This document shows positions 6,827 through 38,182 of a stretch of 64,000 bases of DNA, in pieces. The position numbers and the translations under genes are program-made. Each line of letters starts with the position of its first letter. The stretch's first letter is position 1. The notes below the pieces were generated by a model that had not been told where the DNA came from, did not search any database, and saw only the letters and a list, made by a program, of their open reading frames with translations. Source of the DNA: Candidatus Caldarchaeum sp. (GTDB lineage Archaea; Thermoproteota; Nitrososphaeria_A; Caldarchaeales; Caldarchaeaceae); NCBI GenBank assembly GCA_038831915.1, contig JAWBKB010000001.1:1-64000 (forward strand), given 5' to 3'.

Positions 6827-7441
6827 CTAACTTTTTTCTACGGGGCCCCGGTAGCGCAGGCTGGGAGCGCGTCCGGCTGAAGACCGGAGTGTCGGCGGTT
6901 CAAGTCCGCCCCGGGGCAGGCGATATTGTAAAAGTGGGAAATAGTGGGGCAAAGTTGGAAAAACAGGGAGAGTTTGGCCTGGAGGCTTTAGTCGTCCAGT
7001 CCTTATGAGGTAGTCTTGGAGTCGTCGTTGTTTCCTTCTTATCGTGAATCCCATCCATTTGTAGAACTTCAGCCGAAAGCCGGCGGGAACGTATAAGTTG
7101 TATGCGTTCTTCCTTGTCTCGTATGTTTTTCCTTTTCTAGTGTCTCTGAAGCTTGTTCCATGCTTTGTCATGAGATGTGGTCCCGTCGTCCCTATCTCCA
7201 GCGACTCAATGAGCTGTCTGACGTATCCAAGCAGTTTTAAATCGGTGTTGTAAAAGGTTACGTCTCCATTTTTAGATATGCATCCTTCGCTGTCGAAGAA
7301 TCCCCTCAGAAAAGCCGCCTTACATTCATCGTCATACTCTACGAATTTTTTGATTTTCTCTATGTCTAATGGCTTCTTCACCAGCTCGTAGAGGACTTTG
7401 ATGACTGTGGGACGGTGGTAGCCAAGCCTTGTCAAACACAT
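6827..7441 (-). mobile_element. 5'-truncated LAGLIDADG endonuclease (C-terminal half); frame continues antisense through tRNA-Phe
   Basis: KVLYELVKKPLDIEKIKKFVE...AAFLRGFFDSEG...FYNTDLKLL...GFTIRRKQRRL. Nt 7281-7400 align without gaps to nt 1-120 (93/120 identical by hand count). First LAGLIDADG motif is missing. Confidence 0.85.
6845..6918 (+). tRNA. tRNA-Phe(GAA), intronless, CCA not encoded
   Basis: GCCCCGG TA GCGC..GCGC G TCCGG CT GAA GA CCGGA GTGTC GGCGG TTCAAGT CCGCC CCGGGGC A folds as a complete cloverleaf. Confidence 0.97.
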
Positions 7442-19041: not shown

Positions 19042-20496
19042 TTGGTGAAAATTATGAAAATTTTACCCAACTTCGTCGATAATGAATTCATCGTGCCGAA
19101 GAGCGTCGAGACGATTCCTGTGAAAAACCCGGCCTTCGACACCGTCATCGCAGAAGCACCGATCTCGTCGGAAGAAGATGTGGAAAAAGCCGTTGAATCA
19201 GGTGTACAAGCCTTCGAAAAATTCCGCAAAACCACTCCATCTGACCGAGTTCAATACTTGATGAAGATACGTGAATATCTTGAAAGGGACACTGATGTTC
19301 TGGCACGTGTCTTGGTGGAAAATCATGGACGAACTTATGCGGAAGGAGTTGGAGAAGTCCGGCGAAGTTTGGAGAACGTCGAAGCCGCGGCCGCAATAGC
19401 TTACACGCTTGCAAAAGGCGAAAAAATGGTGAACATTTCTCCCGACATCGACCAAGAACTTATCCGCGAACCTCTGGGATGTTTCGCCGTCATAACACCG
19501 TTCAACATCCCGCTTCATGCATGGTCATCATACGTTCCCTACGCAATCGCTCTGGGATCAACTGTCGTGCTAAAACCCAGCGAGATAACGCCGATGGTCG
19601 CTAACGAAGTGGCTCGGATAATGAAGGACGCCGGCGTTCCACCGGGTATTATGAACGTGATTCACGGCGACGGCCGAGTTGCTGAAAAACTCGTGAAACA
19701 TCCGGAAATTCAAGGAGTTGGGTTCATCGGGTCAACCCGCACAGGCAAGATGCTTTACGAGCTTATGGCTAAAGAGGGAAAACGAGCTTCCATCAACGCG
19801 GGAGCGAAAAACCACATCGTCGTGACGCCTGACGCGGACATGGTGAAAACCGCTGAGGCAGTTGTTTCATCGTTTTTCGGAATGTCGGGGCAGAGATGTC
19901 TGGCTGGCTCGAATCTCGTCGTCCTGCGGGGTGCTGAAAAAGTTGTTGACCTGGTTGCGTCAAAATCACATCTCAGACTGGGGTACGGCATGGAAAAAGA
20001 TACGGAAATGGGGCCGATGGCTTCACGTCAAGGGCTTGAGAAAGCTCTCAGATACATCGAAATCGGCGAAGAATATGGGGATCTTCTCGTCGACGGCCGT
20101 TTGAACAAGCCGGTGAAACCGCTTAACGGATATTTCGTCGGACCCACGTTGTTCAAGAACGTTCCTCCCGATTCACCGCTCGCAAAGGAGGAGATTTTCG
20201 GCCCCGTTGCATCAATTTTATCCGTCGAAGATATCGAAGCCGCCATCGAACTAGTTAACAAGAACACGCCATATGGAAACGCAGCCTCTATTTTCACGTC
20301 GAACCCACGAACGGCGCGGCATTTTGTTCTAAACGTAAACGTCGGCAACGTGGGCGTTAACATCGGAGTTCCCCAACCAATGGCATATTTCCCGCTCGGC
20401 GGACGAAAGATGTCGTTTTTCGGAACAGCTCATAGCCGAGTCGACACGTTAAGATTCTTTACAGACCACAAAATCGTGACGACGAGGTGGTGGTGA
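19042..20496 (+). CDS. CoA-acylating semialdehyde dehydrogenase (MMSDH-like)
   Basis: ITPFN, LKPSE, FIGST, GAKNH, catalytic GQRCLA, EEIFGP, YGNAASIFT. Confidence 0.9.
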   Translation: MVKIMKILPNFVDNEFIVPKSVETIPVKNPAFDTVIAEAPISSEEDVEKAVESGVQAFEKFRKTTPSDRVQYLMKIREYLERDTDVLARVLVENHGRTYAEGVGEVRRSLENVEAAAAIAYTLAKGEKMVNISPDIDQELIREPLGCFAVITPFNIPLHAWSSYVPYAIALGSTVVLKPSEITPMVANEVARIMKDAGVPPGIMNVIHGDGRVAEKLVKHPEIQGVGFIGSTRTGKMLYELMAKEGKRASINAGAKNHIVVTPDADMVKTAEAVVSSFFGMSGQRCLAGSNLVVLRGAEKVVDLVASKSHLRLGYGMEKDTEMGPMASRQGLEKALRYIEIGEEYGDLLVDGRLNKPVKPLNGYFVGPTLFKNVPPDSPLAKEEIFGPVASILSVEDIEAAIELVNKNTPYGNAASIFTSNPRTARHFVLNVNVGNVGVNIGVPQPMAYFPLGGRKMSFFGTAHSRVDTLRFFTDHKIVTTRWW

Positions 20497-21102
20497 ATGG
20501 AAATCGCACCTGGCGCAGTTATCCGTAAAGTCGCTGTTTTCGTCGAAGACACGCTTGTGGAAAACGGCAAACCGTTGAGCAGACCAGTTAGGAAAAGTGC
20601 GGCCGCAGCGGTCATCAAAAACCCTTACGCCGGACAATTCGTTGAGGATTTGCAGGTTTTGATTGATGTTGGAGATTTTCTCGGTGGTTTTCTCGGAAAG
20701 AGAGCGAGGGAAGCATTAGGCATCTCGCCAGCCCAAGTCGAAAGCTATGGTAAAGCAGCAATTATCGGAACGGCTGGCGAGCTGGAACATGGCCACGCAA
20801 TACTGCATCCGAAGTTCGGAAGAGGTCTGCGTGAAGAATCCGGTGGACAGGACGTTTGCAAAGCCATTATCCCATCTGCTGCAAAAATCGGAGGACCCGG
20901 CACAGCTATCGACGTGCCACTACATTATAAGCGTGCGGCTTTCGTCAGAAGCCATTACGACGCGGTTGAAGTCCGAGTGCCTGACGCACCGCTTCCGGAC
21001 GAAATCGTCGTGATAGCGGCTTTGACGGATTCGGGAAGACCTTTACCGCGTATCGGCGGGCTTAAAAAAGAAGAAGTCAAAGGCGAGGACGGTCTTCGTT
21101 AA
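20497..21102 (+). CDS. AA_synth/DUF1185 family protein
   Basis: AVIKNPYAG, ESYGKAAIIG..GELEH, RSHYD, DAPLPDEI, GRPLPR. Confidence 0.88.
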   Translation: MEIAPGAVIRKVAVFVEDTLVENGKPLSRPVRKSAAAAVIKNPYAGQFVEDLQVLIDVGDFLGGFLGKRAREALGISPAQVESYGKAAIIGTAGELEHGHAILHPKFGRGLREESGGQDVCKAIIPSAAKIGGPGTAIDVPLHYKRAAFVRSHYDAVEVRVPDAPLPDEIVVIAALTDSGRPLPRIGGLKKEEVKGEDGLR

Positions 21103-22061
21103 AAGAACCATGGAAACACTTTTCTTTTGAGAAAGTCGGCGATTCCGTTTCGGAAAAACGCGAGCAGAAACACCAGAGTCAAGCCATAGAGAACCTGTGT
21201 CAAGGGTCCGAGGAACCGGAGGGCTTCGTTGACCACAGCGATGATGGCTGAGCCGATGTAGGGGCCGAGGAGAGTCGCCCTTCCTCCCAGAATCACGATA
21301 ATCTGGACAGGGATGTCGACCGATGCGAACGCGAAGTACGATGGTGCGATGAGCTGTGAAAACAATCCATACAGTGCACCTGCGAAGCCGAGAAGAGCAG
21401 AGGAAAACAACGCCGTCAAAGTCTTAACCTTTGAAACGTTTATCCCGATGAGTTCCGCGCTTGTTTCCTCGTCGATGATGCATCGATACGAATATCCTGT
21501 TCTTGTGTGGAATAGTAGGTAATAAGCGATGGCTGTAACGGCGAGAATTGTCATGGTGGCGACGTAGTAGTAGCGGAGGTTGTAGGGTAGAGCGTCTAAC
21601 GGCCCGAGGCTTACGCCTCTTATCCTGAAGCCAGTTTCTCCACCTGTGATGTTTGCGAGGCCGATCACCAAGTTGTTGAAGACAAGCGTGATGGCAAGTG
21701 TGAAAATTCCCGTAAATATTACGACGAGTTTTCTTCTCACCGATAGATAGCTGACAACCCATCCTAAGGCGGCGACAACTGCTGTGGACAGCAGAACGGC
21801 TTCGACTGGGCCCATTAGTCCGTCACGCAGGGAAATTCCTGTGATATATGCTCCGATTCCGATGAATGCGCCGACGCAGAGGAAAAGCTGTCGCGTGAAG
21901 CCGAAGAGGAAGTTGAAGCCGTATGCGAAGACCGTGAAGAAAGCCATCTGAGCAAGAATGAAGACCACGTATGGCGTGTTTATGAATATAAGCGGAACGA
22001 CGACGTAGATGGCTGCGAGGACGATTAAAGCCATGACACCGACTTGTTTCTTGTTCACCAT
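21099..22061 (-). CDS. HAAT (Liv-type) ABC transporter permease, LivM-like
   Basis: TGGETG and ILGGRATLLGP motifs; multi-TM. Confidence 0.9.
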   Translation of the reverse strand: MVNKKQVGVMALIVLAAIYVVVPLIFINTPYVVFILAQMAFFTVFAYGFNFLFGFTRQLFLCVGAFIGIGAYITGISLRDGLMGPVEAVLLSTAVVAALGWVVSYLSVRRKLVVIFTGIFTLAITLVFNNLVIGLANITGGETGFRIRGVSLGPLDALPYNLRYYYVATMTILAVTAIAYYLLFHTRTGYSYRCIIDEETSAELIGINVSKVKTLTALFSSALLGFAGALYGLFSQLIAPSYFAFASVDIPVQIIVILGGRATLLGPYIGSAIIAVVNEALRFLGPLTQVLYGLTLVFLLAFFRNGIADFLKRKVFPWFF

Positions 22062-22927
22062 CTTTCACCTACTATGCCGTAAGGCCTGACCAAAATCAAA
22101 ACCATGATGAATATCAGCAAAGCGACGTAGGCAAGATATGTTCCAATGAAGACGACGAGGAAGGTGTAGACAACGCCTATGACCAGGCCCGAGATAATGG
22201 TTCCGTAGACGCTGCGGATTCCTCCCACCACCGTAACGAGAAGACCGAGAATCGTAAACTCTATTCCGCTTTCAGGCGCTACTGTGGCTACAACGCTACG
22301 GATAATTCCAGCCAAGGTGACAAGGAACGCGCCGAGCAGAAAGACGAATAAACGGTATTTCTGAACACCGATTCCAACGATCAATGCGCCAGTTTCGTTC
22401 TGTGTAAGAGACCTGATTGCCATGCCGCTCCAAGTATTTTTGAGAAAGAGATAAACGCCGACGAGGATAGCGGCTGAAGCGATGCCTGTCACAAGTTGAG
22501 CCGTTCTAAAGGTTAAACCCATGAAATCAACCGTGGCTATTGGAAGGTTTATTGTGAGAAAAGCCAGCGGAAAACTCGTTATCAAAGCGCCGTGAACAAA
22601 AATCGAAAAAGCAAGAGTAATGTATAGGCCGAGTAGGGTTCTTTCTTCGCCTTCGAGGCGGTAAACGGGGGTGAGAAGGATTTTTTCGATAAAGGCCGCG
22701 GTAGCCATAGTGAATAGCACTCCCGCGACGAGGGCGAAAGGTAGAGGAACGTTGAATGCTTGTAGAAGAACGGCGGCGCCAACTGTGCAGATTACGAGAA
22801 GCTCACCGTGTGCGAGATTCAAAACACCCGCCAAGCCATAGATCAGCGTAAGACCTGCCGCGATCATCGAAAGAATTAATCCAAAGACAATCCCATCGAG
22901 GAAAAACAGAAGAAAACCCGCATCCAT
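22055..22927 (-). CDS. HAAT ABC transporter permease, LivH-like
   Basis: GLTLIYG..GVLNLAHGE, VVGGIRS, RPYGI. Confidence 0.92.
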   Translation of the reverse strand: MDAGFLLFFLDGIVFGLILSMIAAGLTLIYGLAGVLNLAHGELLVICTVGAAVLLQAFNVPLPFALVAGVLFTMATAAFIEKILLTPVYRLEGEERTLLGLYITLAFSIFVHGALITSFPLAFLTINLPIATVDFMGLTFRTAQLVTGIASAAILVGVYLFLKNTWSGMAIRSLTQNETGALIVGIGVQKYRLFVFLLGAFLVTLAGIIRSVVATVAPESGIEFTILGLLVTVVGGIRSVYGTIISGLVIGVVYTFLVVFIGTYLAYVALLIFIMVLILVRPYGIVGERW

Positions 22928-22928
22928 G

Positions 22929-23657
22929 CTACATACCCAGGTATTTCTTGACGAACGCGTGTGTTTTCAAGCCTTCTTCGATGTTGCCCTCGAAAACCAC
23001 TCGGCCGTTGGACAGAATGTATCCTCTGTCGCTTAAGGCTGCGGCTTGAGCGGTTCTCTGCTCCACCAGTAAAATCGACATCTCGGATTTTGTTTCCATA
23101 AGTTCGCGCAGTCCTTCGAAAATGTTTTTGACAAGCAGTGGGGCGAGGCCTGTCGAAGGCTCGTCGAGGAGAAGAAGCTTTGAATCGGTCATCAACGCTC
23201 TGCCGATGGCGAGCATCTGTTGTTCACCCCCGCTCATAGTTCCAGCCCTCTGAACCTGTCTTTGCTTTAGTTTTGGAAAAATTTTGAAAACAAGCTCCAA
23301 ATTTTCTTCAAGCTTTTTGCGAGCGCGTTTGTTAAAGGCTCCGAGAAGAAGGTTTTCCCGAACAGTCATGAGGGGGAAGAGCTCTTTCTCAGCCAAGGCC
23401 AGAGAGATTCCTTCCTCGACTATTTTTTCCGGAGGCAATCCGTCTATTCTTTTGCCGTCAAGCTGAATCGCGCCTTTGCGCGGTCTTATTAGGCCTGCGA
23501 TAGTTTTCAAGAGGGTTGTTTTGCCTGCTCCGTTGGGCCCGAGAACGGCTACAACCTCCCCCCTGTCAACATGCATAGAAACATTCCAGAGAACTTGGAT
23601 GTCGCCGTAGCCTGCATCTAAATTATCCACTTTTAGAAGACTCGACAATCTTCTCAC
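22929..23657 (-). CDS. HAAT ABC ATPase, LivF-like
   Basis: GPNGAGKTT, MSGGEQQML, LLLDEPS. Confidence 0.93.
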   Translation of the reverse strand: MRRLSSLLKVDNLDAGYGDIQVLWNVSMHVDRGEVVAVLGPNGAGKTTLLKTIAGLIRPRKGAIQLDGKRIDGLPPEKIVEEGISLALAEKELFPLMTVRENLLLGAFNKRARKKLEENLELVFKIFPKLKQRQVQRAGTMSGGEQQMLAIGRALMTDSKLLLLDEPSTGLAPLLVKNIFEGLRELMETKSEMSILLVEQRTAQAAALSDRGYILSNGRVVFEGNIEEGLKTHAFVKKYLGM

Positions 23658-24375
23658 CTAAATATGCTTCAATCACTTCTTGGTCGGCCACTATTTCCTC
23701 CGGCTTTCCCTCAGCTATTTTAGACCCCTGGTTTAAGACAGAGACTTTATCGGCGAGAGACGAAACCGCGCTAATAACGTGTTCTACCCAGATGATTGTC
23801 AATCCATATTCTTTTCGGATGTATCTGAAAAGGTCGATGGCGTCTTCTATTTCCGCCGTGTTTAACCCGCTCATGTATTCGTCGACCATCAAAACTTTGG
23901 GCCTCGATGCAAGAGCCCGAGCAAGCTCGACTTTTTTCCGTTCCTGTAGGTTGAGGACGCCTGCCTTCATATTCGCTTTGTCGGTCAGCTGAAGCTTGTC
24001 GAGGAGGGAGTCCACATGGCCTTCCAGCTCGTCCCGAGATATTCGGATGCTGTAAAGCCCTCCGACGTAAACGTTTTCCCACACAGTCAAATCTTTGAAA
24101 GGCCGCGGAATCTGAAGCGTTCTGCCGACGCCGAGCTTGAAAATTTCGTGGGAAGGCTTGCCCGTAATGTCGATGTTGTCTAGAAAAATTTTTCCAGAAG
24201 TCGGCTTGAAGACTCCGTTGATGATGTTGAAGAGAGTGGTTTTTCCCGCGCCGTTGGGCCCGATGATGGCCCTGATTTCACTTTCAGCGACTTCGAGGTT
24301 TACGTTTTTTAAAGCCGGTAGGCCGCCGAAATACTTAGTAACGTCCACGCATCTAACGATTACTGTCAACCCCAT
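23623..24375 (-). CDS. HAAT ABC ATPase, LivG-like
   Basis: FGGL.AL, GPNGAGKTT, VIEAYLG; AGGTGA SD-like sequence upstream. Confidence 0.93.
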   Translation of the reverse strand: MGLTVIVRCVDVTKYFGGLPALKNVNLEVAESEIRAIIGPNGAGKTTLFNIINGVFKPTSGKIFLDNIDITGKPSHEIFKLGVGRTLQIPRPFKDLTVWENVYVGGLYSIRISRDELEGHVDSLLDKLQLTDKANMKAGVLNLQERKKVELARALASRPKVLMVDEYMSGLNTAEIEDAIDLFRYIRKEYGLTIIWVEHVISAVSSLADKVSVLNQGSKIAEGKPEEIVADQEVIEAYLGEKIVESSKSG

Positions 24376-24390
24376 TTATCACCTAAAGAC

Positions 24391-24412
24391 GAAATAAAAA
24401 AGATAAGAAAAT
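24391..24412 (-). terminator. T-rich tract after the substrate-binding gene (possible partial archaeal terminator)
   Basis: ATTTTCTTATCTTTTTTATTTC on the minus strand between the SBP stop and the ATPase start. Confidence 0.4.
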
Positions 24413-24417
24413 GAGGA

Positions 24418-25632
24418 TTACTCAGCCGGTACGTATGGCTGGACGGGTGGAGATGTGTAAATGGTTTCAACTACCCAGTTGGCTCCGGGGTTTATGGGGC
24501 CTGGGGAGCCGCGTTTGATCACTGCAAGCCTCATGGCCGGTTTCTTGATTTCACCCCATTCAGTGTAGGATAGAGGCCATGCGAATATGGGATCGTTGAA
24601 TTCGCTTGTTCGGATGTGATTAGCAACTGTTACTGGGTTTGTTGACCGTGTTTTTTCAACAGCGTCAGCGATAGCCAACACGGTGACGTAGCCGGCGACG
24701 GCGTTGTGGTCGAAATATCTTCCATATTTCTGATAGAATTTGACCGCGAGTTCCCGGTATTCAGGTGCCTCGGTTCTTACGCACGTCGTCGTCACGAGTT
24801 TGTCGAGGCCGATGTCTCCGACTCCTCTAAGCATCAATTCAGGAGGTTGCACAGAAGCTATGTAGTATTGAGATGGGAACCCAAGCTCTATAGCCTGCTT
24901 CGTTATAGTTGGAAATCCCGGTGGATGACCGGTGAGAATCATGACTTCGGGCTGAAGCGGCTGAAGCTTACGCAGCACCGTGGTAAAGTCTGTTTCACCA
25001 AGCGGTGTTTCCTCAATCTGGAACTGAACGTTCGGAATTTCTTTCAGCCTTCTTTCAAGCACTTCTTTGATAGCGAAACCCCATTCATAGCTGGCGATGA
25101 TGACTCCGACGCGCCTGTATCCCATATCTTTGACAAAGTTGGCGAGGAGCTCGCCGTTGGTTGGTGCAGGCGGTAGACATGTCCTGAAGGTGAAACGCGA
25201 ATCTTTCGTCAAAATCGTGTGAGATCCAGCCGCTATGAGGAATAGAGGAACTTTAGCCTGTTCGGCTTCCGCGGTCAATACCGCTCCTATGCCGCTGGAA
25301 ATCGTTCCAACCACCGCGACAACCTTGTCTATTTCAGCCATTCTTTTGAAGATAGACACCGCTTCTTTCGCGTCGTTCTTCTCATCTGCTTCGATCAATA
25401 CGACTCGAGCACCGAGAACACCTCCCTTGGCGTTGATTTCTTCGACGGCGAACCTCATCCCGTCAAGAGTGTAGGCGCCATAGATGGCAAAAGGGCCCGT
25501 CAAGGGCACCAAGGCACCAATTTTTACTTCAGAAACACCGAGGCTTTGCTGCGAAAGAAACAGAAAAGCTGTCGAAGCGACGGCCGCGACGACAACGAGG
25601 GCGACAATCACCACCACAACTGTTTTTTTCAC
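24418..25632 (-). CDS. HAAT ABC substrate-binding protein, LivK-like, N-terminal membrane anchor
   Basis: KIGALVPLTG...AVEEINAKGGVLG, FTFRT. Confidence 0.92.
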   Translation of the reverse strand: MKKTVVVVIVALVVVAAVASTAFLFLSQQSLGVSEVKIGALVPLTGPFAIYGAYTLDGMRFAVEEINAKGGVLGARVVLIEADEKNDAKEAVSIFKRMAEIDKVVAVVGTISSGIGAVLTAEAEQAKVPLFLIAAGSHTILTKDSRFTFRTCLPPAPTNGELLANFVKDMGYRRVGVIIASYEWGFAIKEVLERRLKEIPNVQFQIEETPLGETDFTTVLRKLQPLQPEVMILTGHPPGFPTITKQAIELGFPSQYYIASVQPPELMLRGVGDIGLDKLVTTTCVRTEAPEYRELAVKFYQKYGRYFDHNAVAGYVTVLAIADAVEKTRSTNPVTVANHIRTSEFNDPIFAWPLSYTEWGEIKKPAMRLAVIKRGSPGPINPGANWVVETIYTSPPVQPYVPAE

Positions 25633-25659: not shown

Positions 25660-26655
25660 TTAAATCTTTACATTTTGTACAGACGGAAACAATTCGTCGA
25701 CGATTTTGCGAAGCTGCTGCATCTCGAACGTAACAGGATTCAGAACAATCCAGTCAACGCCTTCAAGCGACTTGACACGTTCCTTGATTTTTTCAGCAAT
25801 TTCTTCAACCGTTCCGTAGAGGTAGAATTTTTTCCAGTAGTCAAGGTTCATTCCTGAATAGAGTGAAAATCGTTTCACTGCTTCTGTGTCGCTGTCTCCT
25901 GGATTCTTCAAGTAAACGAAGTTCGAATAGATCTTTGTGATTTTGTAAGGGTCTTTTCCCAGATCAGCCGCGTATTTCTTAACCTTCTCCCAGTCTTGTG
26001 CAGCCATTTCAGGCGTCGAACTCGAATGCGGAATCCATCCATCAGCAAATTTAGCGATGCGGAACAGCACTTTGTCGATTCCTTTAGCCGCGGCGCCGTA
26101 GAGAATTTCGTGTGGCTGGCTTCCTCCACCAATCCAGATAGGTGGATGCGGTTTCTGAGCTGGCTTGGGTTCGAGAACCAAGTCTTTTACGTTGAAGAAT
26201 TTGCCTTCGAAAGTGATTTTATCCTCTGTCCAAAGTTTTTTCAACAGTTGCAGATATTCGTCCATTATTGTTCCGCGTTTTTCGAGAGGCGTGTTGAGAA
26301 GGTTGAATTCGTCAGGGTTCCATCCGACGCCTGCGCCGAGCACAAATCTCCCGCCCGAATACACGTCGAGTGAAGCAATTTGTTTAGCGACGAGGTAGGG
26401 ATTTCTGAAAGGTAGCACCATGATCATAGGGCCTATCAGTGCTTTTTTTGTCGCTGCAGCCACAAACGACAACGCTATCAAAGGGTCGTGCCAACTGGTT
26501 GAATATGCGGGCCTCGAGGTAAGCAGATGATCTATGACGAAAAATCCTTCAACTCCCATGCGTTCGGCTTCCGCGACGTAGTTCTTCAAAGTCTCCGCGG
26601 ATGAAAATTCTCCGGGCCTGGCGTATGTAGGTAAACGTAGACCTAACTTCATCAA
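25660..26655 (-). CDS. LLM-class (luciferase-like, probably F420-dependent) oxidoreductase
   Basis: DH, LPFRNP...AKQIASLD..SGGRFVLGAGVGW, PKPAQKPHPPIWIGG, ADGW. Confidence 0.9.
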   Translation of the reverse strand: MMKLGLRLPTYARPGEFSSAETLKNYVAEAERMGVEGFFVIDHLLTSRPAYSTSWHDPLIALSFVAAATKKALIGPMIMVLPFRNPYLVAKQIASLDVYSGGRFVLGAGVGWNPDEFNLLNTPLEKRGTIMDEYLQLLKKLWTEDKITFEGKFFNVKDLVLEPKPAQKPHPPIWIGGGSQPHEILYGAAAKGIDKVLFRIAKFADGWIPHSSSTPEMAAQDWEKVKKYAADLGKDPYKITKIYSNFVYLKNPGDSDTEAVKRFSLYSGMNLDYWKKFYLYGTVEEIAEKIKERVKSLEGVDWIVLNPVTFEMQQLRKIVDELFPSVQNVKI

Positions 26656-27836
26656 TGTGCACCTTCGGGCAGTTTTGCTTCGCCGCTTGTTTTTATTTGT
26701 TTAGAAGGCGGAGGTGTCATACGGCTGCGACCAACTCTAACAACTCCATCAATCATGACCATGGCGATGCCGGGTATGTCGCCGATTGAAAATGCTTCGA
26801 CAGCGTCGTTCGCGACTGAGCCATATGGCGCGTCCATTACCACTAGGTCTGCTGGACGTCCCGGCTCCAGAACTCCTTCTTTGAGTCCGAAAGCCTTTGC
26901 GGTGTTTCCAGTGGCTGCGCAGACAGCTTTCTCAGGCGCGAGTCCCGTGTTTGATGCTATGAACGAAATAGTTCTGATGATGCCGAGAGGAATGACGCCT
27001 GTGCCCGAAGGTGAGTCTGTTCCAATTATCAGCCGATTTAACTCGTTTCTGGATTCGAGGATTTTGACCGTTTCCACCATGGATTTGAAGTTTCCACATT
27101 GGACGACTTCGATCGCTGATTTCGTGTTTTCGATAATGGTTCGGATGTCGGGGATTGACGGGGATGTGGGGCCTCCGTTGATGTGAGAAACAACGTCAGG
27201 CTGAACTTTGAGAACGACTTGTGCATTGATTACTGTGCTTCCTGGGATAGATGCTCCACCTGTGTGAATCACGACTTTCATGCCGTGTTTCTGGGCAAGT
27301 CGGACAAGATCGGCTGCTTCGTCGGGGTCTTGAACAGTTCCCAGCCCCACTTCGCCGACAAGCCAAACACCTTTCGCAACCACTTCTTGGAAATCGGCTT
27401 CGACAAGCCCTTTTTCCAGTAGGAGGGCGCCTGCGTGAACTTTCGCGCCGAGAGGTCTAAGGTTTTTGAAGGTTTTGTGTGCGAGAACAGCGAGTGCTTT
27501 CGCCGCTTCTTTGTCGCCCCGAGGCCTGCCAGGAAGATGCACTTCTCCCGCTGAAACGAAGGACGTTACTCCGCCGTTGACGTAGGCTTCGATGAAGCCC
27601 AACGTGTTCTGGCGTGGTGTGAAGTCGCCGAAAACGGGATGAACATGTGAGTCAATCAGTCCGGGAGTTACGGTCATCTGGTTTACGTCGAAGACTCCGT
27701 CGGCGGGCTTTGAAATATCCCAGCCGATTTCCTCTATTACCCCGTTGCTGATGTAAATGCTGTCGCCGTCTGCAAATGGTTTATCGAGTTTTCCTAAAAG
27801 AATTTTTCCCGCGTTTTTTATGAGAATAGTTTTCAT
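26652..27836 (-). CDS. ena: Amidohydrolase, close homologue of enamidase (nicotinate catabolism)
   Basis: PGLIDSHVH..GDFTPRQ, SAGEVHLPGRP, LEKGL, GEVGLG, HTGGASIPGS, SHINGGPT, GTDSPSGTGVIPLG, GDIPGI, SRMTPP. These follow Eubacterium barkeri enamidase motif by motif as I recall it. Confidence 0.85.
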   Translation of the reverse strand: MKTILIKNAGKILLGKLDKPFADGDSIYISNGVIEEIGWDISKPADGVFDVNQMTVTPGLIDSHVHPVFGDFTPRQNTLGFIEAYVNGGVTSFVSAGEVHLPGRPRGDKEAAKALAVLAHKTFKNLRPLGAKVHAGALLLEKGLVEADFQEVVAKGVWLVGEVGLGTVQDPDEAADLVRLAQKHGMKVVIHTGGASIPGSTVINAQVVLKVQPDVVSHINGGPTSPSIPDIRTIIENTKSAIEVVQCGNFKSMVETVKILESRNELNRLIIGTDSPSGTGVIPLGIIRTISFIASNTGLAPEKAVCAATGNTAKAFGLKEGVLEPGRPADLVVMDAPYGSVANDAVEAFSIGDIPGIAMVMIDGVVRVGRSRMTPPPSKQIKTSGEAKLPEGAH

Positions 27837-30157
27837 AAATTTCCGCTCTGAAAGTCGTTTTTATTTGTTGCGACGCTCCATAAATAATGCGGCGAAAGAT
27901 GTGATTTTGTTATCCGTATTTTTGTGGCGTCTTCAACTGCGTTAGCAATGGCTGCGGCGACAGGTATGAGCGGGCCTTCGCCCATTCCTTTAGCACCTAA
28001 TTCAGAAAACAGCGAGGGATTTTCAACATGATCAACGATTATCTCGGGTGTTTCCAAGCTGGTGGGTAAAAGATAGTCGCTTAGAGATGAGGTCAACAAT
28101 ATTCCATCACGGTCATAGACCATTTTTTCGTAAAGTGATGCGCCTAATCCCTGCAAAACACCGCCGATTATCTGCCCTTCGACGATTGATTTGTTCAGGA
28201 TTTTTCCACAGTCGTGAACAGCCACGTATCTTATAACTTTGACCTGATATGTGTCGGGGTCGATTTGCACGATTGCGACGTGAGCGGAGTTACCGTATGT
28301 GGCTGACATGTTGATTTCGCCTGGGCCTCCTGTGTTGAACGTCGGGAAATCGTAAAAAACTTCAGCCTGCAGAGTTCCGTGATTGCTCCGCGTCCGCACC
28401 ACATCCCGGTAAGCTTTCGCCGCAAGTTGAGCAAACGTCAGAGACATATCTGTTCCTTTGAGGACAATTTTTCCATCGTTTATTTCCAAGTCTTTTTCCG
28501 ATGCTTCGAGTAGGTTGGCGGCGAGCGAAAGAATTTTACCTCTTAGGATTTCACATGATTTTTTCACGGCGGCAACGGTTATTACGCTGAATCTGCTGGC
28601 CCATGTGCCGCCGTAAGGGCTTGGATAAATCATGTCGGAGTCGCCGAAAACTATTCTTACATTTTCGGGTCTAACACCCAGAGTTTCCATGACCACTTGG
28701 GTCAGAACGGTTTCGTGACCTTGTCCCTGAGGTATTGAAGCGGCGTAAACTGTTATCGTTCCAGACTCTTCAAGCCTGACGATTGCTCCTTCACCTGAAC
28801 CCGATGTTTCGAGTTCGGGAAACAAGAGCTTGTTTCGGGCCAAGTTAGTGACCGCGGGCTCAACCACGCAGGCCACGCCAATGCCAATATGGGGCAAGCC
28901 TTTGTATTTCTCGGGCTGAGCCAGCTCCCATGCCTTTAACAACACGTCGCGGTAGTTTCCACCGTCGTAAAGACTTCCGAACACCGTGCGGTACGACATC
29001 ATCTCACCGTCGACCATGTTCTTCAACCTGATTTCAACAGGCGATAGCCCAAGTTCTTTCGCCGCGATGTCCATCATTCTCTCGAGAACAAAGTATGCTT
29101 GCTGACATCCATAACCACGGACAGGGCCAGTCGGACATTTGTTCGTATAAACCACTTTCAACTCAACTTCGACGTTGCGGATATCATAGCAGCCCAGGTA
29201 AGTCATTAGAGACCGTATGACGCCGCCAGGGTCGGGTAAACGGGCGAAGGCCCCTACGTCCTCGATGAAACGTGTGCGGTATGCTGTGACTTTTCCCGTT
29301 TTTTCAAGCGCCATCTCAGCGAAAGTGACGCGGTTGGAGTTATGGGCCATCGCGGTTAAATGTTCCCGACGCGTTTCAACCCATTTAACGGGTCTTCCCA
29401 GCCGGAGAGCGGTGTAAGCGACGAGGAACACATATGGATAAAGCATTATCTTGACGCCGAACCCGCCTCCAATGTCTTTCTCAATGAACCGGAGCTTTTC
29501 AGACCTGATTCCAAGCGAATCGGCTATAATTTTTTTGAAAAGGAGAGGAGTTTGCTGGTTGTCGTAAATAGTTAGCGAGCCGTCCTTTGAAGGCACCGCG
29601 ACTACTCCCGAAGTCTCTATTGGTGATGAAACATACCTGTCGAATGCAAATTTTTCTTTGATTATTTTGTCGGCGTTGGCGAATGCTTCTTGGACTTTTC
29701 CGAATGAAAATTTTCGTTTGACCGCGAGGTTGGTTCCCAACTGTTCGTGAATAAGCGTTGATGTTTGGAGTGCTTCTTCGGGGTCGAGAACTGCGTCCAA
29801 AGGCTCGTATTCGACGGCAACATGCTCTGCCAAGTCGAATGCTTCTTCCCGTGATTCCGCGACCACCGCTGCGACAGCTTCGCCGTAGTAACGCACTTTG
29901 TCAACCGCTATTCCGTAGTAATGCACGTTTTTCATGAGTGTGTAAAGGGGCTTTGTATGCGATGCGATGGTTTTTCCGGTGAATACGTGAGCGCCTCTCC
30001 GAACAGCGTCCTCGTAGTCAATGTGTTTGAGCCTGGCGTGGCTATAAGGGCTTCTGACAAAAACTAAATGAAGCATTTTTGGAAAAACGATGTCATCGAC
30101 GTAAACGGCTTGACCCTTTAGGAACCGGGGGTCTTCGACTCTTTTCGATAAGGACAA
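27833..30157 (-). CDS. Xanthine dehydrogenase-family molybdopterin large subunit (CutA/CoxL/NdhL-like, not form I CODH)
   Basis: KRVED.RFL.G, IGGGFGVK, active-site loop PVRGYG, QGQGHET, ASR, GAKGMGE. Confidence 0.92.
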   Translation of the reverse strand: MSLSKRVEDPRFLKGQAVYVDDIVFPKMLHLVFVRSPYSHARLKHIDYEDAVRRGAHVFTGKTIASHTKPLYTLMKNVHYYGIAVDKVRYYGEAVAAVVAESREEAFDLAEHVAVEYEPLDAVLDPEEALQTSTLIHEQLGTNLAVKRKFSFGKVQEAFANADKIIKEKFAFDRYVSSPIETSGVVAVPSKDGSLTIYDNQQTPLLFKKIIADSLGIRSEKLRFIEKDIGGGFGVKIMLYPYVFLVAYTALRLGRPVKWVETRREHLTAMAHNSNRVTFAEMALEKTGKVTAYRTRFIEDVGAFARLPDPGGVIRSLMTYLGCYDIRNVEVELKVVYTNKCPTGPVRGYGCQQAYFVLERMMDIAAKELGLSPVEIRLKNMVDGEMMSYRTVFGSLYDGGNYRDVLLKAWELAQPEKYKGLPHIGIGVACVVEPAVTNLARNKLLFPELETSGSGEGAIVRLEESGTITVYAASIPQGQGHETVLTQVVMETLGVRPENVRIVFGDSDMIYPSPYGGTWASRFSVITVAAVKKSCEILRGKILSLAANLLEASEKDLEINDGKIVLKGTDMSLTFAQLAAKAYRDVVRTRSNHGTLQAEVFYDFPTFNTGGPGEINMSATYGNSAHVAIVQIDPDTYQVKVIRYVAVHDCGKILNKSIVEGQIIGGVLQGLGASLYEKMVYDRDGILLTSSLSDYLLPTSLETPEIIVDHVENPSLFSELGAKGMGEGPLIPVAAAIANAVEDATKIRITKSHLSPHYLWSVATNKNDFQSGNL

Positions 30158-37018: not shown

Positions 37019-38182
37019 ATGAAGATAAAAACTCGTCAACCAAACCCAATTTTCATGAAAGAAGTGGAAGACCTGCAGGTGCTCTTTCCAGTAGACTATT
37101 GGAATCGGAAAAGTGACGAAGCTGCCTTTCCCGAAGAGTTTTGGAGCGAAGCTAGCCGGCGTAAACTTCCAGGCTTTCTCATACCTCAGCGCTACGGCGG
37201 CTTGGGCAAAACATTGACGGAGCTTGTCGAGACAGTTATCTACCTCGCCTCGCATGGCTGTGGAACAGGTCTTTACCCGTTGCTCAGCAACAACATGTCA
37301 TCACTCGTCATCATGAATTCAGCAAGCGAAAAACTACGCGAAGAATTCCTGCCAAAACTCGCGTCAGGCGACTACGTCATGGGTCTCGCGGTCACAGAGA
37401 AGGAATCAGGCTCCGATGTTCTTTCGATAAAGACGTCGGCGGAGAAGATTAGAGGGAAATATGTTGTCAAGGGCGAGAAAATGTACGTCAACAACGTCGA
37501 CCGCGCGACGCACATGCTTCTCGCCGTCAGAACGACTCCGGCTGAGCGTGTTGCGAAAAAAAGCGATGGAATATCGCTGTTCATCGTCGAGTTTGACCGA
37601 AGGCGGCTGAAGGTTGAGCCGCTTGAAAAGATGGGTACGAATTATTTTCGGACTGCGGCGGTGGTTTTTGATGGCGTTGAAGTTGATGAAGATTTTGTGG
37701 TCGGAGAACTGGACAAGGGCTGGAAAGCTTTGACATACGCCTTGAACCCGGATAGAATCGTGTACGCGGCTCTCGCGGTTGGCTCTGCGTTCTTCGCAAT
37801 CAAAACAGCGTCAAATTATGCTCGAAGCCGATTGGTTTTCGGAAAACCCATCGGCTCTTATCAAGGCATACAGCTGCCCCTTGCAGCACATTACTCTGAA
37901 GCGGAGGCAGCTAAGCTCTTGACGTTGGAGGCCGCTCGAAAATTTGACCGAAGAGAGAGAACAGACGTAGACGCTTGCCTCGCCAAATATCTCGCTTCGG
38001 AGGTGGCGTTCAAAGCTGTTTCGGTTGCTTTGCAGGTGTTGGGCGGATATGGATACTTGAGGGAAAGCGGTTTGGAAAGAGTTCTACGCGACGTTTACCT
38101 GCTCAAATCCGGGCCCATAACGCAGGAGCTCGCCCTCGCCTATATAGCTGAAAAAGGACTCGGCCTTCCCCGCTCATATTAA
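37019..38182 (+). CDS. Acyl-CoA dehydrogenase family protein
   Basis: AVTE..SGSD, GEKMY, R.VFGKPIGSYQGIQ, LGGYGY; alternative start at 37055. Confidence 0.92.
   Translation: MKIKTRQPNPIFMKEVEDLQVLFPVDYWNRKSDEAAFPEEFWSEASRRKLPGFLIPQRYGGLGKTLTELVETVIYLASHGCGTGLYPLLSNNMSSLVIMNSASEKLREEFLPKLASGDYVMGLAVTEKESGSDVLSIKTSAEKIRGKYVVKGEKMYVNNVDRATHMLLAVRTTPAERVAKKSDGISLFIVEFDRRRLKVEPLEKMGTNYFRTAAVVFDGVEVDEDFVVGELDKGWKALTYALNPDRIVYAALAVGSAFFAIKTASNYARSRLVFGKPIGSYQGIQLPLAAHYSEAEAAKLLTLEAARKFDRRERTDVDACLAKYLASEVAFKAVSVALQVLGGYGYLRESGLERVLRDVYLLKSGPITQELALAYIAEKGLGLPRSY

Follow-up and report, generated by a model that had tools for sequence, protein, structure and literature searches.

A minus-strand gene at 25660..26652 of a 64,000-nucleotide stretch of DNA from Candidatus Caldarchaeum sp. 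(GenBank assembly GCA_038831915.1, contig JAWBKB010000001.1, positions 1 to 64,000 of the forward strand; hereafter the window) encodes a luciferase-like (LLM) protein and directly follows the gene of an enamidase (ena). The LLM is proposed to be an F420H2-dependent hydride transferase whose reduction of 6-hydroxynicotinate, or of a very close analogue, yields the tetrahydro product opened by the enamidase; this assignment draws on sequence, gene context and a predicted structure, and is given a probability of roughly 0.55. In this capacity, the LLM would take over the task of the 6-hydroxynicotinate reductase (Hnr), a covalent flavoprotein whose reaction needs ferredoxin. The gene lies where an initial annotation of the window had placed it, that is, in an open reading frame (ORF) at 25660-26655 on the minus strand that matches the families PF00296 and TIGR03619.

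In the proposed route, a co-encoded molybdenum (Mo) hydroxylase would make 6-hydroxynicotinate or a very close analogue, after which the LLM would transfer hydride to C4 of the 6-pyridone ring and reduce its C4=C5 bond, which is part of an α,β-unsaturated lactam. The resulting 1,4,5,6-tetrahydro-6-oxonicotinate would be passed to the coupled enamidase and hydrolyzed to 2-formylglutarate and NH3; subsequently, an aldehyde dehydrogenase (ALDH) resembling methylmalonate-semialdehyde dehydrogenase (MMSDH) may form glutaryl-CoA and CO2 from 2-formylglutarate, which is a malonate semialdehyde substituted at position 2, with F420H2 regenerated from NADPH by Fno. The nicotinate pathway of Azorhizobium caulinodans ends in glutarate, which matches the glutaryl-CoA route inferred here.

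The proposal is carried mainly by the distribution of the two reductases beside ena. The best 80 of 562 confirmed ena matches in species-representative genomes were taken with 10-kb flanks, their ORFs were clustered, and each locus was typed by tblastn (at least 50% coverage, E ≤ 1e-10); Hnr alone is found in 58 loci and the LLM alone in 16 (12 from Caldarchaeales, two from Terriglobia and two from Actinomycetota), while no locus holds both and six hold neither, so that the mutual exclusivity of hnr and this LLM clade raised by the initial annotation is borne out. Among the six, four (L034, L041, L048 and L063) are short or lie at a contig edge, L065 retains only the Hnr companion, and L067 is a full Bacillus locus. 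The protein cluster taken as Hnr, by its domain, context and source names rather than by the E. barkeri sequence, comprises proteins that follow ena in most loci, measure about 505 aa and carry a 2x[4Fe-4S] domain at the N-terminus; "6-hydroxynicotinate reductase" is the source name of a 64%-identical protein and of a 42%-identical protein in an annotated plasmid. Many of these Hnr loci carry the full nicotinate fermentation set, namely a 3-hydroxyisobutyrate-dehydrogenase-type Hgd, aconitase-type subunits, a B12 mutase, a PrpF-type isomerase, a MutL-type protein and a lyase of the phosphoenolpyruvate-mutase type. A UPF0280-like companion, which probably assists Hnr as a partner or in its maturation, is present with Hnr in 50 of the 58 Hnr loci and with the LLM in none of the 16 LLM loci. 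This companion of about 283 aa (e.g., L032:6362-7213 and L177:3701-4630) has no Pfam match and a weak match to NCBIfam PRK04334; it is annotated as UPF0280 in one plasmid record, a family that presumably belongs to the ApbE superfamily.

The statement in the initial annotation that the cluster and the window hold no Hnr-like gene is upheld by the 51 window ORFs of at least 150 aa scanned against Pfam, none of which is of the Hnr type, and the absence extends to the whole genome. For instance, when 55 Hnr-type proteins were compared by tblastn with the 34 contigs that make up the source assembly (1.59 Mb, 95.6% complete), only short ferredoxin-domain matches resulted, at no more than 0.17 query coverage, and the 283-aa companion gave zero matches against the same contigs; likewise, genome-wide searches of five other LLM-type genomes found no Hnr in any of the five. 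The LLM itself has no Fer4 domain, adopts another fold than Hnr and bears no homology to it. The remainder of the cluster is common to both types, as the LLM loci share the Mo subunit, the enamidase, a DUF1185 protein and the MMSDH-like ALDH with many Thermodesulfobacteriota loci of the Hnr type; therefore, Hnr (with UPF0280) and the LLM can be regarded as one exchanged module. The same place beside ena, the missing Hnr and the mutual exclusivity together support, at slightly better than even odds, the non-orthologous replacement that the initial annotation had suggested, and it is rated just as probable that the LLM-type cluster is the known pathway with its ring reductase displaced in this manner.

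The linkage between the LLM and ena is close and recurs across lineages. In a 61-genome sample of the order, 15 genomes have an LLM orthologue (at least 66% identity), without exception in contact with ena, and ena is found in the same 15 genomes plus one contig-end fragment. The gene order is Mo-Ena-LLM-ABC in archaea, ALDH-Ena-DUF1185-LLM in Terriglobia, LLM-DUF1185-Ena-ALDH in Actinomycetota and Ena-DUF1185-LLM-Mo on metagenome contigs (ABC stands for ATP-binding cassette transporter genes); because this order varies between lineages, the LLM-ena linkage has outlived rearrangement. A metagenome scan with the LLM alignment returned five homologues that are full-length and at least 44% identical; three of these (L083, L084 and L086, all from metagenome contigs) adjoin ena, DUF1185 and a Mo subunit; the other 75 metagenome LLM loci show no ena, 74 of them lying at 28-43% identity, and L124, a partial 44% match, stands beside Mo-hydroxylase subunits without ena. 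When plasmid records were searched for a cultured host of the LLM-type cluster, enamidase homologues (41-48% identity) turned up in 25 records, this LLM in none of the five inspected, and the best plasmid LLM match was at 31% identity. A phylogenetic profile of Terriglobia, in which only two of 201 genomes, both already known, carry the LLM orthologue and CofD is common, was discarded as uninformative. That the LLM is a passenger gene without a role in the pathway is very improbable: nothing specific speaks for it beyond the general point that a gene neighborhood alone is no proof of function, and against it stand the contact with ena in every LLM-bearing genome of the order, a linkage that persists in four phylum-level groups across several gene orders, and the existence of the clade-specific invariant residues described next.

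The family membership of the LLM is firm, since it scores 165.8 bits against PF00296 (gathering score 27.9) and 203.8 bits against TIGR03619, a predicted F420-dependent family with a cut-off of 166.9; other high-scoring NCBIfam models are mostly those of F420 families. An AlphaFold2 model forms a (β/α)8 TIM barrel with a predicted local distance difference test (pLDDT) score of 87.4 and a predicted template modeling (pTM) score of 0.88, and Foldseek matches it with probability 1.00 and template modeling (TM) scores of 0.69-0.79, normalized to the query, to Mer, Adf, Fgd, LuxA and SsuD. The top matches are F420-dependent Mer, and sequence identity to solved luciferase-like hydride transferases (LLHTs) amounts to 18-24%. 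Eleven residues (R6, Y25, I40, Y50, W54, S210, D220, W221, F245, F262 and Y277) are invariant in the 20 Ena-linked LLMs, the distant actinobacterial ones included, and each is matched in only 0 to 16% of 38 unlinked paralogues; from this pattern of conservation, they are candidates for substrate binding. A protein atlas confirmed the LLM family with neighbors from Methylomirabilota and Actinomycetota, and gave nothing further.

The enamidase orthologue (26652..27836, minus strand, 394 aa) matches PDB entry 2VUN with an E value of 1.5e-119 over residues 3-380. In the enamidases of the Hnr type, 122 alignment columns are conserved at 95% or more, and for 104 of these columns the residue is retained by 90% or more of the LLM-linked enamidases; the remaining changes are conservative, and only G135A and E230D differ consistently between the two groups. 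On account of this conservation, it is argued that the enamidases of both cluster types act on the same or a very similar reduced-ring substrate.

Several observations count against the proposed reaction, and the main doubts concern the cofactor, for which no Fo synthase was found, the exact substrate, the ena loci that hold neither reductase, and comparative evidence that may trace back to a single origin. With regard to the cofactor, neither the sequence nor the fold of the LLM separates F420-dependent from flavin mononucleotide (FMN)-dependent members, and FMN enzymes score near Mer; an assignment by Foldseek was set aside for this reason, as SfnG, LuxA, RutA and SsuD are nearly as close as Mer. 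No characterized member of the LLM clade or of TIGR03619 was found in a full-text literature search. The search for F420 biosynthesis genes that the initial annotation had called for succeeded in part. The source genome holds CofE (290 bits), Fno/NpdG (173 bits, cut-off 149.8) and an FrhB-like gene; CofC, CofD, CofG and CofH were not found in the source assembly, where a weak "CofH" match of 17.7 bits proved to be lipoyl synthase. CofD passes its cut-off in 12 of 12 congeners and in 17 of 17 genomes of the family, and CofC lies beside CofD in five of five congeners; moreover, synteny with a closed congener runs to within 0.7 kb of the contig C4 end, and cofC-cofD would be expected about 1.5 kb beyond the point where it breaks off. 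Since this site would lie just past the contig end, the absence of cofC and cofD here is probably due to an assembly break. CofG and CofH, which constitute Fo synthase, were found in none of five congeners of 90-99% completeness (G004, G008, G012, G016 and G031); judged by its gene content, the genus seems equipped for the conversion of Fo to F420 and not for the synthesis of Fo itself, and F420 would therefore need imported Fo.

A wider test for CofD covered the genomes of 50 of the 80 loci, in which CofD passes its cut-off in seven of eight LLM-type hosts, two of 41 Hnr-type hosts (both archaea, Archaeoglobi and Hydrothermarchaeum) and zero of one host of the neither type; the host of L058 is the LLM-type genome in which CofD was not found. 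The sample of the order already includes four of the eight LLM-type hosts, all four being Caldarchaeales, and the base rate of CofD in Terriglobia is 78 of 201 (a tally that includes one unpublished genome, G215), so that its presence in the two Terriglobia hosts weighs little; for both reasons, the correlation between CofD and the LLM is suggestive rather than strong. On this gene complement, the use of F420 by the host is plausible. There is nonetheless a small chance, rated somewhat below that of the other two substantial alternatives, that the LLM is the ring reductase but works with reduced FMN or another flavin instead of F420, an explanation that would fit the lack of an Fo synthase in the genus, the cofC and cofD genes not found in the assembly, the CofD-negative LLM-type host and a fold equally like that of FMN enzymes. 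This explanation has to contend with the score of the LLM above the TIGR03619 cut-off and the predominance of F420 families among its other high-scoring models, with hosts that are nearly all CofD-positive, and with the Fno and CofE genes of the source genome; furthermore, reduced FMN, at -190 mV as listed in part of a 2021 F420 review (PMC8498797), would be a much weaker reductant for a step that is otherwise driven by ferredoxin.

With regard to the substrate, the presumed ring hydroxylase is represented by a Mo large subunit of 774 aa (27833..30157, minus strand; Pfam domains Ald_Xan_dh_C, MoCoBD_1 and MoCoBD_2), which is 27-37% identical to the Mo subunits of the 49 bacterial ena loci having one; an NCBIfam scan placed no equivalog at its cut-off. 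The cluster has no gene for a 2Fe-2S or flavin adenine dinucleotide (FAD) subunit, and genes for FeS and FAD subunits are confined to other contigs; the orphan state of the large subunit implies subunit sharing or a different electron path. It may be added that the genome holds at least eight Mo large-subunit paralogues and about five FeS-subunit genes (contigs C2, C4 and C25). Owing to the low identity of the Mo subunit and its lack of FeS and FAD partners, the substrate may not be nicotinate. The cluster could accordingly degrade another N-heterocycle, with the LLM still reducing a hydroxylated ring ahead of an enamidase-like hydrolase; such a route is considered improbable, though not negligible. 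It would agree with the divergent Mo subunit that reaches no equivalog, with a transporter of the Liv/urea ABC type in place of the tripartite ATP-independent periplasmic (TRAP), major facilitator superfamily (MFS) or solute:sodium symporter family (SSF) transporters of the Hnr-type loci, with the 41-48%-identical enamidase-like plasmid proteins that stand in different contexts beside Rieske dioxygenases or FAD oxidoreductases, and with the separate part of the tree formed by the LLM-linked enamidases. It is opposed by the 104 of 122 columns kept from bona fide nicotinate-fermentation enamidases, whose differences are conservative, and by the DUF1185 protein and MMSDH-like ALDH common to the Hnr-type loci.

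The third doubt arises from ena genes and LLM genes that stand apart. Two of the five close metagenome LLM homologues (L085 and L087) have no ena in the available DNA, and ena occurs without either reductase nearby in the Bacillus locus L067 and on plasmids of Mesorhizobium, Thermomicrobium and Rhodococcus; hence, the reductase can be unlinked or of another kind. The ena loci without a nearby reductase lend some weight to the explanation that the LLM performs another step, such as F420-dependent aldehyde or alcohol redox chemistry on 2-formylglutarate or an FMN-dependent oxygenation, and that an unlinked enzyme reduces the ring. The characterized LLHTs described in part of the F420 review (PMC8498797) include alcohol and sugar dehydrogenases, and the FMN monooxygenases SfnG, RutA and SsuD are almost as close to the LLM in sequence and fold as the F420 enzymes; even so, this explanation is regarded as unlikely, to about the same degree as that of another heterocycle. 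When LLM-type loci are compared with Hnr-type loci of the same lower pathway, only Hnr and UPF0280 are missing, the ALDH already covers the aldehyde step, and no Hnr was found anywhere in the source genome or in the five others searched. In addition, no flavin-reductase family was found among the 51 window ORFs scanned, a search that did not extend to smaller ORFs or to the rest of the genome.

The last doubt concerns how many independent events the comparison contains. In an enamidase tree of 84 rows obtained by a quick search, the 20 LLM-linked rows fall on one side of a branch, requiring one change, with a support of only 18, and the Actinomycetota rows are sister to the Caldarchaeales rows with a support of 93. 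The exclusivity may thus fit one displacement, followed by descent and by transfer of the whole cluster; as the tree is compatible with such a single origin, the exclusivity is not countable as 16 events. A fuller scenario that builds on the proposed hydride transferase is offered only tentatively, being held at a little under even odds: the LLM would be an F420H2-dependent 6-hydroxynicotinate reductase, a new activity, that displaced Hnr and UPF0280 once and then spread as a cluster among F420-using lineages, i.e., Caldarchaeales, Terriglobia, Actinomycetota and probably Methylomirabilota, leaving the Caldarchaeum pathway dependent on Fo that the cell cannot make; the N-heterocycle catabolism of Caldarchaeum would then be linked to the cross-feeding of this cofactor precursor in hot-spring communities.

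Compared with Hnr (EC 1.3.7.1) of the nicotinate fermentation of Eubacterium barkeri, the LLM occupies the same place beside the enamidase in otherwise equivalent clusters and is proposed to form the same product; however, it is an unrelated protein without the iron-sulfur domain and the UPF0280 partner of Hnr, and its electron donor would be a hydride carrier rather than ferredoxin. With the F420H2-dependent LLHTs, such as the picrate reductase Fht/Npd, the dehydroalanine reductase LxmJ and Mer, the LLM has the TIM-barrel fold in common; it would differ from them in acting on a hydroxypyridine carboxylate in a catabolic pathway, in addition to its low identity to the solved members. As covered in part of PMC8498797, F420 is an obligate hydride carrier of -340 mV, F420H2 reduces enones, enoates and enamines, and LLHTs transfer hydride to the ring of picrate and reduce dehydroalanine, so that both an aromatic ring and an α,β-unsaturated amide have precedent as hydride acceptors. 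The portion of PMC9304392 that treats E. barkeri and Azorhizobium describes a route via tetrahydro-6-oxonicotinate with hydrolytic opening to 2-formylglutarate, that is, the same reduced intermediate and mode of ring opening as proposed for the LLM-type cluster. No paper linking F420 or LLMs to the reduction of nicotinate or 6-hydroxynicotinate was found in a full-text search, which misses most subscription papers.

Part of the same 2021 review (PMC8498797) states that F420 has no experimentally established physiological role in bacteria outside Actinobacteria and that its role in TACK archaea is unconfirmed. The present locus offers a concrete and testable role of this kind, with one substrate, one product and an assay coupled to the enamidase. 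If the proposal is true, the LLM would represent a previously undescribed activity that adds the partial reduction (dearomatization) of a pyridone ring in central catabolism to LLHT chemistry, and biocatalysis would gain a ferredoxin-independent ene-reductase for N-heterocycles. It would also explain how the pathway is completed in organisms with an enamidase but without hnr, and assign a function to part of the large uncharacterized TIGR03619 family.

The operon on the minus strand begins with the Mo-hydroxylase large subunit and continues with the enamidase, the LLM and five Liv/urea-type ABC transporter genes (21099-25632). These last comprise a substrate-binding protein (24418..25632; Pfam Peripla_BP_6, 176 bits), a LivG-like ATPase (23623..24375) and a LivF-like ATPase (22929..23657), both assigned by Pfam and NCBIfam profile scans, and two permeases (22055..22927 and 21099..22061; Pfam BPD_transp_2); the substrate-binding gene is kept after the LLM in eight of 12 archaeal loci. 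On the plus strand, and convergent on the 3' end of the operon, lie the genes of the MMSDH-like ALDH (19042..20496, 484 aa; TIGR01722, 411.6 bits, under its cut-off of 448.5) and of the DUF1185 or "amino acid synthesis" (AA_synth) protein (20497..21102, 201 aa; PF06684, 232.8 bits). The MMSDH-like ALDH is found in eight of 12 archaeal and four of four bacterial LLM-type loci, as well as in many of the Hnr type.

At the junction of ena and the LLM gene, which reads CAT TGA TGA AG on the minus strand, the overlap depends on the start codon. The four nucleotides by which the initial annotation had the LLM gene overlap the enamidase stop are reproduced with a TTG start at 26655 (331 aa); the next codon, ATG (26652-26650), yields 330 aa and an overlap of one nucleotide (TGATG). 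Database proteins identical and 91% identical to the LLM, of 330 and 325 aa, begin with MKLGLR; the overlap of one nucleotide is more likely because these homologues start at the ATG, and the two genes are tightly coupled whichever start holds. Metatranscriptome contigs from one library, with zero or one differing letters each among the matches listed, span the binding-protein gene, ena and the Mo gene, and a 603-nt contig piece bridges the LLM/ena junction, although DNA carry-over is possible. The raw RNA runs X17 and X18 placed zero and one reads, respectively, too few to inform on expression.

The DUF1185 protein is present in 59 of the 80 ena loci, in Hnr and LLM types alike and whatever the lower pathway, and it looks like an unrecognized core component of the enamidase pathway; its PDB match, 2qtp (E 3.3e-65), is an uncharacterized protein, as is 3byq. 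It is likewise a companion of the enamidase on plasmids from Thermomicrobium, Mesorhizobium and a strain of Comamonadaceae, the last with two copies. In Bacillus sp. JJ1562 (L067:9306-12459), an isochorismatase resembling nicotinamidase, the enamidase, DUF1185 and the S-component of an energy-coupling factor (ECF) transporter occur together, with no Hnr, LLM or Mo enzyme within 10 kb, so enamidase and DUF1185 can occur as a pair with no reductase linked to them. Enamidase-like genes at 44-48% identity on plasmids of Thermomicrobium roseum, Mesorhizobium sp. WSM4875 and Comamonadaceae OTU4NAUVB1 (L174, L175 and L177) have varied neighbors: one set forms an aerobic cluster of the Hnr type that includes a ferredoxin-NADP reductase, another combines two type II dehydroquinate dehydratases with an "FAD-binding oxidoreductase", and the remaining one has a Rieske dioxygenase with a short-chain dehydrogenase/reductase (SDR). 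The redox module beside an enamidase-type hydrolase is evidently interchangeable. The B12-mutase fermentation genes are missing from many Hnr-type clusters (L035-L079; Thermodesulfobacteriota, Syntrophorhabdales and others), which have the same MMSDH-like ALDH, a TRAP transporter and a cupin-helix-turn-helix (HTH) regulator instead. This pattern suggests that a so far undescribed branch of the lower pathway, leading from 2-formylglutarate probably to glutaryl-CoA, is widespread in anaerobes.

A second cluster of the source genome (C4:19876-25871, or L169:876-6871) is built on the same principle and combines xanthine-dehydrogenase-like large, FeS and FAD subunits with an SsnA-like aminohydrolase and another LLM, which is Mer-like and of the F420 type (199 bits to TIGR03555, below the cut-off); an adenine deaminase gene is divergent from it, and the cluster may serve an F420-linked reduction of the purine ring. 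In the window, an acyl-CoA dehydrogenase at 37019-38182 was considered as a possible glutaryl-CoA dehydrogenase, a role for which it provides no support, since no equivalog passes its cut-off. The window is archaeal in content, with DUF2139, DUF1512 and DUF373 proteins, the D subunit of a V-type ATPase and an archaeal PheRS, and the nearest homologues of its proteins are from Candidatus Caldarchaeum. Finally, a tRNA gene at 6845-6918 on the plus strand (61 bits) lies antisense within a 204-aa ORF (6827-7441, minus strand) that has a weak LAGLIDADG_3 match and may be spurious.

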